From Octopus vulgaris (lineage: Eukaryota), in assembly GCA_951406725.2 (NCBI GenBank), contig OX597840.1:33232001-33296000 (forward strand): a stretch of DNA of 64,000 nt. The letters run 5' to 3'. Shown here one piece after another: positions 6,058 to 58,180 of the stretch (the first letter of the stretch is position 1; each line of letters starts with the position of its first letter). The position numbers and the translations under genes are program-made. The notes under the pieces are model-generated. The model searched no databases. It worked only from the letters and a program-made list of their open reading frames with translations, and had not been told where the DNA came from.

Positions 6058-6450
6058 TCCATTATATAAAAATCCGTTCTGTTTGTCTGTCTGTGTGTGA
6101 GTGTGTGATAGGATCTCGGGCATCCTCCATCCGATTGCGCTCAAATTTGATATGTAGATACCGACGGTATCAGGGCGTGTATAAGTTGAAAAAGTTGAAA
6201 AAGTTACATAAATCGATTCCAGGTGAGAGTGCGATCGATAAAGCCGTGGGAACGTGCATTTGTAAAATCGTTTTTCTTTGGAATAGAAAAAAAGTCTATC
6301 TTTATTTCTTTTGCTGGTGTCTCAAATTTAGATTAAATCAGTGTTTCTCAAAGGGGAGGCCTATGGGACGGTCGGACAATTTGAGAAAATTTGGTTTAAA
6401 TGTTTGACAACTCAGCACCGTCCATTGGACGGGGAGGGGGCCGTTGGAAA
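6058..6450 (+). mobile_element. Non-autonomous Helitron-like element (family H), copy 1
   Basis: Starts tccattatataaaa; subterminal hairpin CCGTCC-att-GGACGG; homologous to 6610-6985. Confidence 0.6.
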
Positions 6451-6540
6451 AAATATATATATTATATATATTATTTATTTACGTATTGCTTTATGTCTAT
6501 CACTGTTTAAGTTGCATAATAGTGGTTTTATCTCTAATTC

Positions 6541-6609
<69 letters not shown>

Positions 6610-6621
<12 letters not shown>

Positions 6622-6985
6622 CCGTTCTGTGTGTGTATGCATGTGTCTTCTAGGATCTCGGGCATCCTCCATCCGATTGCGTTCAAATTTGATATGTGGA
6701 TACCGGCGGTATCAGGGCGTGTATAAGTCTTGAAAAAATTTCAAAAATTGATTCCAGGTGAGAATGCGATCGATAAAGCCGTGAGAACGTGCATTTGTAC
6801 GCGCAAGTACATCAACTGTTGCGATCGATACTACGCGTACGCGAGAAAAATGCACGGTGTCTCAAATTTAGGTTAAATCAGTGTTTCTCAAAGGGGACGA
6901 TTGGACAAGTTGTTTTGAAAAAATTTGGTTTAAATGTTTGACAACTCAGCACCGTCCATTGGACGGGGGGCATTTTGTCCGTACT
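6610..6985 (+). mobile_element. Family H Helitron-like element, copy 2
   Basis: Same body and 3' hairpin as 6058-6450; further 3' fragments at 45392-45575 and 45810-45915. Confidence 0.6.
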
Positions 6986-7696: not shown

Positions 7697-7725
<29 letters not shown>

Positions 7726-7733
<8 letters not shown>

Positions 7734-8510
7734 ATAGAGGGCATTATTACACATAAATGCCTCACACTAAGAGGGACTAAGTCATTACTACCAAAATTAT
7801 ACTAATCATACCCATGGGTATGATTAGTATAATTTTGGTAGTAATGACTTAGTCCCTCTTAGTGTGAGGCATTTATGTGTAATAATGCCCTCTATACAAT
7901 ATAGATATAATTAATTTGTTCAAAAGAAAAAAATTATTTTCGAATTCTTTTCTTTTATGAGGTTTTCACGCTAACTATCCGATAATTTCTTGTTAAGATT
8001 CCTTATTAAGAGGTTATCCTTAATTGTTAAACTTATTCCGAAATACTTTTTATTACCCGACATGCAGTTCGTAAAAAGCCCGCCATTTACCGGATATATG
8101 ATTTATAAACATTCCATGTGCTTGGCCGGAGTGATCAGTTGTCTGGTCGTCTTCGCTACGTAAGGTTGGTAGTTTATTTATGATGTGTTCAGAATCAGTT
8201 CTGCTGAGGATCATAAGACGCAAGTTGAATGTGAAATCACGGTGATACAGAACTAAATTCATTTTTTTAAATGTCTTGCTTTGAAAAACTGCATTTGGGT
8301 ATGATTAGTATAATTTTGGTAGTAATGACTTAGTCCCTCTTAGTGTGAGGCATTTATGTGTAATAATGCCCTCTATACAATATAGATATAATTAATTTGT
8401 TCAAAAGAAAAAAATTATTTTCGAATTCTTTTCTTTTATGAGGTTTTCACGCTAACTACCCGATAATTTCTTGTTAAGATTCCTTATTAAGAGGTTATCC
8501 TTAATTGTTA

Positions 8511-8514
<4 letters not shown>
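7726..8514 (+). mobile_element. Retrozyme/PLE-like insertion: 178-bp perfect palindrome plus a 481-bp-period partial tandem repeat with HHR
   Basis: Palindrome 7726-7903 centred on cccatggg; 7815-8033 repeated at 8296-8514; (TA)n on both sides. Confidence 0.85.
8197..8254 (+). ncRNA. Type-I hammerhead ribozyme motif
   Basis: Stem I AGTTCTG/CAGAACT, core CTGAGGA, GAAA, stem III ATCA cgg TGAT, predicted cleavage after A8247; stem II weak. Confidence 0.75.
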
Positions 8515-8585
<71 letters not shown>

Positions 8586-57587: not shown

Positions 57588-57827
57588 GGCTTCGCTAGGT
57601 ATGTTGGTTGTTTGTTTAATTATGATGTGTTCAGAATCGGTTCTACTGATGAACATAGACGTATTTGATGCGTTAATTGTGAAATCACAGGTGATATAGA
57701 ACTAAATTCAGTTTTTTAAATGTCTTGCTTCGAAAACTGCATTAGGTATGATTAGTTAAATTTTGGTAGTAATGACTTATGTCCGTCTTAGCGTGAGGCA
57801 TTTATGTGTAATAATGCCCTCTATAGA

Positions 57828-57835
<8 letters not shown>
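57585..57835 (+). mobile_element. Diverged copy of the 7726-8514 family with HHR at 57639-57703
   Basis: GGTTCTA-CTGATGA-ACA..GACGTA tttga TGCGTT..TGT-GAAA-TCA cagg TGAT-A-TAGAACT; (TA)n flanks. Confidence 0.85.
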
Positions 57836-57864
<29 letters not shown>

Positions 57865-57865
<1 letters not shown>

Positions 57866-58178
57866 AAAGGGCTTAGTAAAATAAATTACTTTGCCACATA
57901 CTGAACTCATTAGAAATAGCAGCCAAAAAAACTTTTTTAAAACTATTTCTAATACTTAAAGAAAATCTCTCTCATATAGTGCTTGCTCAATTCAACTCAC
58001 GAAAGTATGGGGGTAAAGACATTAAAAAATCAAATGCAAAGGTTATTTGAGAACGTACGTTTCAAGATTAGTCAAACTCGACATTTCTATCATCAGCTCA
58101 GAACTCCTTGGTTTGGATTTGAAAACACTGAAAGTGGGAGCATACCCTTTCGGCTTCCTATCGCTTCTGAAGATGTTG

Positions 58179-58180
<2 letters not shown>
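57865..58180 (-). mobile_element. Diverged copy of the 43150-43941 family with HHR at 58047-58101
   Basis: rc: TGAG-CTGATGA-TAGA..GTCG agtt TGAC..TCTT-GAAA-CGTACGT-T-CTCA. Confidence 0.8.

Follow-up and report, generated by a model that had tools for sequence, protein, structure and literature searches.

The window examined here, a 64-kb stretch of Octopus vulgaris DNA, contains at 7726-8514 a copy of a new retrozyme-type repeat inserted with a Penelope footprint, the element itself being of the expected kind. On balance, we favour a reading in which a non-coding 481-bp hammerhead repeat recently entered a (TA)n tract as a two-armed insertion, which a Penelope-like enzyme would have primed at both target strands on one, probably circular, RNA.

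In the window copy the B arm measures 89 bp and the A arm 700 bp. The palindrome described in the first-pass annotation, 178 bp long with 89-bp arms and a spacer of 0, is exact (7726-7903, centred between 7814 and 7815), and it is the sole non-microsatellite example of such a kind in the window. The 219-bp direct repeat with a period of 481 bp, for which about one mismatch had been claimed, was located at 7815-8033 and 8296-8514, with one mismatch (7978 T versus 8459 C). When the 481-bp unit is numbered from window position 8037, the short inverted arm (7726-7814, minus strand) covers unit positions 348 to 260, and its outer end is fixed site B, which runs as ..CCCTCTATACAATATA into the TA repeat. 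Both arms stop at unit position 260, at the zero-spacer head-to-head junction (7814-7815), from which the long arm extends on the plus strand as a partial unit (7815-8036, unit 260-481, with an internal B site at 7903 and an internal A site at 8036) and then a full unit (8037-8514, unit 1-478, with an internal B site at 8384), the latter ending at fixed site A as ..GTTAAACT into the TA repeat. The (TA)n target tracts that flank the copy on the left (7700-7730) and on the right (8514-8541) had gone unmentioned in the earlier annotation; the target-site duplication is unreadable, because both flanks are TA repeats.

Coding capacity had been denied to the element, and no ORF longer than 83 aa (stop to stop) lies wholly within it. 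The Penelope-type inverted end proposed for it is borne out by the partial tandem with an inverted 5'-truncated arm, while its reading as a terminal fold-back of one copy has to be given up, as the palindrome is the junction of two opposed arms, each with its own fixed start. The exact window junction was found once in the whole genome and other loci have differing junctions, so the palindrome is not an inherited part of a master element.

The family was searched for in the 2.8-Gb Octopus vulgaris assembly, where the 481-bp unit gave at least 201 matches (40 scored of 1654 candidates) and the exact hammerhead pattern 399 matches, with 0 for the reversed control. The unit has a GC content of 0.33 and no long ORF, and arrays range from 1 to 7.5 units. 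The window subfamily differs from the window unit by 0.5% substitutions (20 units, 12 loci), in line with the young insertion claimed earlier, and an older subfamily with 83-85% identity to the window unit shares the layout; a solo B-ended copy of the latter lies in the window itself (57588-57832, plus strand, 85% identity, hammerhead core at 57646). The window element is a single member of a family that is dispersed, young and non-coding and that by its anatomy we class as a non-LTR retrozyme. Other insertions into family units were also seen, namely an APE+RT LINE with open frames of 495 aa and 1133 aa (L049, 2457-7742) and a 1.7-kb insert (L066).

One hammerhead per unit had been noted before, and a type I layout is indeed found at 8197-8254 (plus strand). 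Stem I is formed by 8197-8203 and 8248-8254, the core CUGAGGA (DNA CTGAGGA) occupies 8204-8210, and then come stem II, with a U-U at its base as in HHR_Amex2, GAAA and a short stem III; the predicted cut falls after 8247. Core and stems are present in every full unit examined, and among the fetched copies the core is conserved between subfamilies, position 7 alone varying (G/C/T/A). On an alignment of 8 sequences 94% of cells pair, versus 28-36% in slid controls, and stem I has one G-C to A-U double change (a compensated pair); the covariation is weak because this one change was inherited by four rows. Rfam gave 0 matches at E<=10 on the hammerhead region, and on the whole window microsatellite and hairpin noise alone among the matches listed. 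Folded in isolation, the 91 nt do not take the hammerhead layout as their minimum-energy structure (z 0.35), and the circular 481-nt monomer folds at -120.6 kcal/mol (z -5.3 versus 60 shuffles). In a recent preprint (10.64898/2026.07.22.740005) an active copy is one with at least two consecutive hammerheads; the window copy has one, and many other loci of the family carry 2-8.

Family copies terminate against TA tracts, the target of the family, at two fixed places, A (unit ~472-481) and B (~348-354), which are ~130 nt apart, with B upstream on the RNA. Exact end patterns with a TA tail amounted to 128 for A and at least 192 for B. It had been proposed to check whether copies are circular permutations of one unit without fixed ends, and the answer is divided: the outer (3') ends lie at two fixed sites, which excludes free circular permutation, while the inner (5') ends are free. 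Pairing was counted on contigs C1-C10, where both end lists are complete (64 A, 99 B). Of 26 neighbouring end pairs within 8 kb, 24 were divergent and 2 had the same direction; all 24 divergent pairs were A+B (A+A 0, B+B 0) and both same-direction pairs were B+B, the all-A+B outcome having p ~2e-8 on the assumption of independent draws of ends. By exact patterns only, 40 of the 64 A ends and 75 of the 99 B ends on these contigs were without a partner end within 8 kb.

The inverted junctions give the same picture, as 49 of the 52 scored were A+B and 3 had one end elsewhere; 19 of the 52 had been fetched because they were A+B, and 30 of the 33 chosen by similarity were A+B. When three further similarity-picked loci outside this set are included (L123, which is A+A, and two with one end elsewhere), similarity-picked junctions comprise 30/36 A+B, 1 A+A and 5 with one end elsewhere. 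L123 (1383-2595) is the sole A+A inverted copy; short inverted duplications make up its junction, and 100 bp beyond lies a fragment that ends at B. The rule among inverted copies is one arm of each type, A and B. A and B each occur also as the sole 3' end of solo copies, and the tail is one-sided and, at ~130 nt, beyond the described 30-40 bp.

Inner ends are scattered over the whole unit, and arms run through the hammerhead cut site, only 4/97 inner ends lying within 5 nt of it; run-off from a hammerhead-cut linear monomer was rejected on this count. The inner ends of the two arms are at most 4 nt apart in 10/52 junctions, against 1.1 expected (0/20000 permutations reach 10); eight of these ten are clear by eye, and L066 and L068 are doubtful, the latter being a false positive of the palindrome test on a TA tract. 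The spacer is 0 in four of the coincident-end junctions, and 4 of the 8 clear symmetric junctions differ between arms by whole units: +1 (the window copy), +7, +1 and -1. Asymmetry was found in 42/52 junctions, many by more than 100 nt; in other junctions the arms overlap by 1-8 nt or a few letters are inserted between them. A zero-spacer palindrome arises when the two arms end on one and the same template base, and this recurs. In L1 twin priming, two target ends prime on one RNA, which leads to a 5' inversion, and the sense arm ends close to the internal site of priming. In the 481-bp family, by contrast, the A arm continues well beyond B and each priming point is fixed; the mapped inverted junctions contradict twin priming of the classical form, in which the sense arm would finish at the second primer.

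Regarding the template, both arms share a diagnostic haplotype in 32/34 inverted copies, and 8 locus-private variants are present on both arms. Across the genome, the copies suggest that a single RNA is likely the source of both arms, with a fixed start site for each. After the homopolymer tract and short pieces had been removed, variants found in at least 3 loci were fixed in all covering units in 181/191 locus-by-variant cases; of the private variants, 81 were single, 12 fixed (at L071, two occur in every one of the 6 pieces) and 9 present in a subset of units. At least 5 haplotypes have homogeneous arrays of 3-7 full units, arrays reaching ~7.5 units, and no subfamily-diagnostic mosaic common to separate loci was observed. 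The monomer-to-multimer step therefore recurs, in keeping with a circle or with repeated template jumping. The homogeneous arrays and the read-through of the cut site indirectly favour a template that was a circle or a monomer read more than once; the nine subset variants need later exchange between units or a mixed template.

In the reading we favour, a reverse transcriptase/GIY-YIG protein, probably a dimer, would nick both strands of the TA repeat, one nick priming cDNA synthesis at RNA site A and the other at site B, ~130 nt upstream. Both cDNAs would be extended towards the RNA 5' side, across the hammerhead cut site, and at the stops the cDNA ends would be joined, or one would template the other, with second strands supplied likewise. 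Hammerhead cleavage followed by ligation would make the 481-nt circle, additional whole units on one of the arms (+1 in the window copy) would correspond to further laps of it, and both cDNAs stopping at one base would give a perfect zero-spacer palindrome, as in the window copy. Against this model stand the A+A copy L123, the fact that most ends have no partner within 8 kb, the ~130-nt tail, and the nine private variants present in a unit subset, for which a single circle is insufficient without later exchange between units. Also against it count the U-U pair of the hammerhead, its absence from the Rfam matches and its departure from the predicted fold, the Xenopus and anole results on cleavage given below, the finding of no DNA homology to the unit in the two autonomous families checked, and the failure of independent contigs to cross the window junction.

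A more specific proposal, which we put forward only tentatively, is that an asymmetric Penelope enzyme dimer may hold the hammerhead-made circular RNA at two fixed start sites and perform rolling-circle double target-primed reverse transcription, in which either cDNA could lap the circle and each could template the second strand of the other. If true, a single step of this kind would account for three traits of Penelope elements together, namely their inverted ends, their one-sided tail and their junction palindromes, and animal retrozyme circles would be true transposition intermediates; we know of no demonstration so far that retrozyme circles are copied into genomes.

The same enzyme and start sites might instead have used an uncleaved linear multimer read from a genomic array, with no circle involved, and long arrays would then come from long sources or from DNA-level expansion. 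Such a template would recall the anole element, which used mainly uncleaved RNA (PMC11167929), and coincident inner ends would have a simple explanation if both cDNAs ran off the same broken 5' end; the nine subset-shared variants show exchange or duplication between units, and the 4.6-kb autonomous element described below makes partial tandems too. It seems unlikely nevertheless, given that the homogeneous arrays recur in at least five haplotypes, that private variants are fixed across whole arrays and that no mosaic is shared. The offsets of +1, +7 and -1 at coincident ends would require A and B to lie on units up to 3.4 kb apart, and the extra unit of the window copy could not have been built from the 260-481 arm after insertion.

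Self-priming, a model published for rotifer Penelope elements (PMC3846280), would have a single primed cDNA fold back, so that the mirror arm would be copied from that cDNA itself, and the endonuclease or TA microhomology would resolve it at the other site. Arms of one haplotype in 32/34 copies, the excess of palindromic junctions and the TATA-like letters in which site B ends would all suit it, but a zero-base loop is unable to self-prime, there is no inverted microhomology at unit position 260 (GCATT/TGGG), the asymmetry of 42/52 junctions is often greater than 100 nt, and A and B both act as the sole 3' end of solo copies, as start sites would. The counts in the 481-bp family favour two target-primed arms over the self-priming described in that paper, and we regard self-priming as quite improbable here. 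Hardly credible is an assembly or chimeric-read artefact, despite arms that are 100% identical and a junction that is unique in the genome, because the arm stops exactly at site B and is followed by a TA tract and unique flank, whereas a chimeric read would not be expected to break off there and return to the flank. Contigs of four public runs contain the family, and none of them crosses the window junction; among these short-read contigs, one has an opposite-strand joint, and joints resembling fold-backs also occur in the 481-bp family. The layout is common to dozens of loci and to a second family.

The mobiliser very probably belongs to the Penelope-like enzyme class, and while this class is well supported, the exact partner is not. 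A very abundant young autonomous Penelope-like element, reached through a GIY-YIG-like fragment beside one copy, has a 4598-bp unit with an open frame of 1312 aa (L102, L103; G000 C5:115.84 Mb and C1:59.39 Mb). By eye, this frame shows YVDD, CxxxxCxxC and a C-terminal YVGET, and it has a long Asn-rich stretch; Pfam gave no family for the protein, and some of its relatives carry PF01541, PF26215 and PF28514. By the cysteine motif named in PMC8557442 it is putatively of Neptune/Nematis type. A hammerhead-like motif with a CTGATGC core lies ahead of the frame start, and the element has TA targets, two fixed ends, A' and B', 56 nt apart (a tail of 56 nt), and partial tandems of its 4.6-kb unit. 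Of 24 inverted junctions chosen from opposed endonuclease hits, 20 were A'+B' and 4 were without resolved ends; one had no spacer. Its end motifs resemble those of the 481-bp unit over 6-7 letters (ACAATAT; TTAAAC.TA).

A second young Penelope-like family (L157-L185), found via a divergent query, has a long (TACA)n-rich 3' region, and some copies end in TA at ..CACGCTGCAATTGTT; a plain hammerhead was not found in six of its loci by pattern search. The 481-bp unit gave no alignment beyond chance to the loci of the two autonomous Penelope-like families checked, and because no autonomous element with DNA homology was found in these two families, the exact partner is inferred from the layout and two short motifs alone. 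The LINE inserted in L049 (5.3 kb) was considered as a partner and rejected, as its frames are APE+RT.

Retrozymes are non-coding tandem repeats with hammerheads and circles, for which Penelope elements are candidate mobilisers (Cervera and de la Peña 2020, PMC7229834) and which have been related to pLTRs (Li et al. 2026, 10.64898/2026.07.22.740005); in the latter preprint, 8/9 Xenopus retrozyme dimers showed no cleavage in vitro and 1/9 was cleaved. Like the metazoan non-LTR retrozymes of PMC7229834, the 481-bp repeat is non-coding and low in GC (33%); each unit has a single type I hammerhead, copies range from dimers to multimers and the monomer is strongly self-paired, although the unit slightly exceeds the quoted 150-450 bp. 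Insertion ends are undescribed in the available text of the retrozyme papers (the word "inverted" has 0 occurrences in that of PMC7229834), whereas here they were mapped to two fixed sites.

Penelope-like insertions are described with an inverted 5'-truncated copy, a 30-40-bp tail that is often one-ended, and (TA)n targets, and the mechanism by which the elements put together their tandem and inverted insertions is described as an unsettled question (Craig et al. 2021, PMC8557442). In Penelope, the tail lies on one inverted pLTR, and self-priming on an antisense template was the explanation offered for palindromes at the inverted junction (Arkhipova et al. 2013, PMC3846280). The 481-bp family resembles the endonuclease-bearing Penelope-like insertions of these two papers in its partial tandem with a head-to-head inverted 5'-truncated copy, one-sided tail, junction palindromes and AT-rich/(TA)n target; unlike Penelope-like elements, it has no ORF in its unit, a tail of ~130 nt instead of 30-40 bp, and up to 7.5 units. 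The anole Poseidon element PAc has two internal reverse transcription start sites in vitro, which delimit the tail and lie downstream of the hammerhead; both strands are nicked and extended, a dimer is predicted, the target is AT-rich and uncleaved RNA is used (Frangieh et al. 2024, PMC11167929). PAc start sites are adjacent, in contrast to ~130 nt apart in the 481-bp family, and PAc showed no strand difference in start site; the pairing of both sites in one insertion is not addressed in the sections of that study examined. The counted A+B rule, the whole-unit offsets and the 481-bp family itself were not found in the literature searched, which excludes older Penelope papers; data on insertion ends may be contained in the supplements to the 2020 and 2024 studies. 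As the 481-bp family is short, young and abundant, it offers countable rules (A+B arms, a shared haplotype, coincident stops with whole-unit offsets), which discriminate the published self-priming model from double target priming and are testable with the existing in vitro assay.

Other features of the window include a different hammerhead family at 43145-43941, also head to head (arms of 188 and 86 bp, 98%), in which the left arm is ~95 bp longer at its outer end; its hammerhead cores lie at 43506 (minus) and 43685 (plus), with a related piece at ~57860-58180 (minus). Further minimal hammerhead-like motifs, CTGACGAAG...GAAAC, are present at 2540 (plus), 52122 (minus) and 52428 (minus). A direct repeat with a period of ~540 bp, 88-98% identical in blocks, occupies 6083-6968, and three tandem copies of a 184-bp unit, which we take to be octopus SINE-like, are found at 22198-22750.
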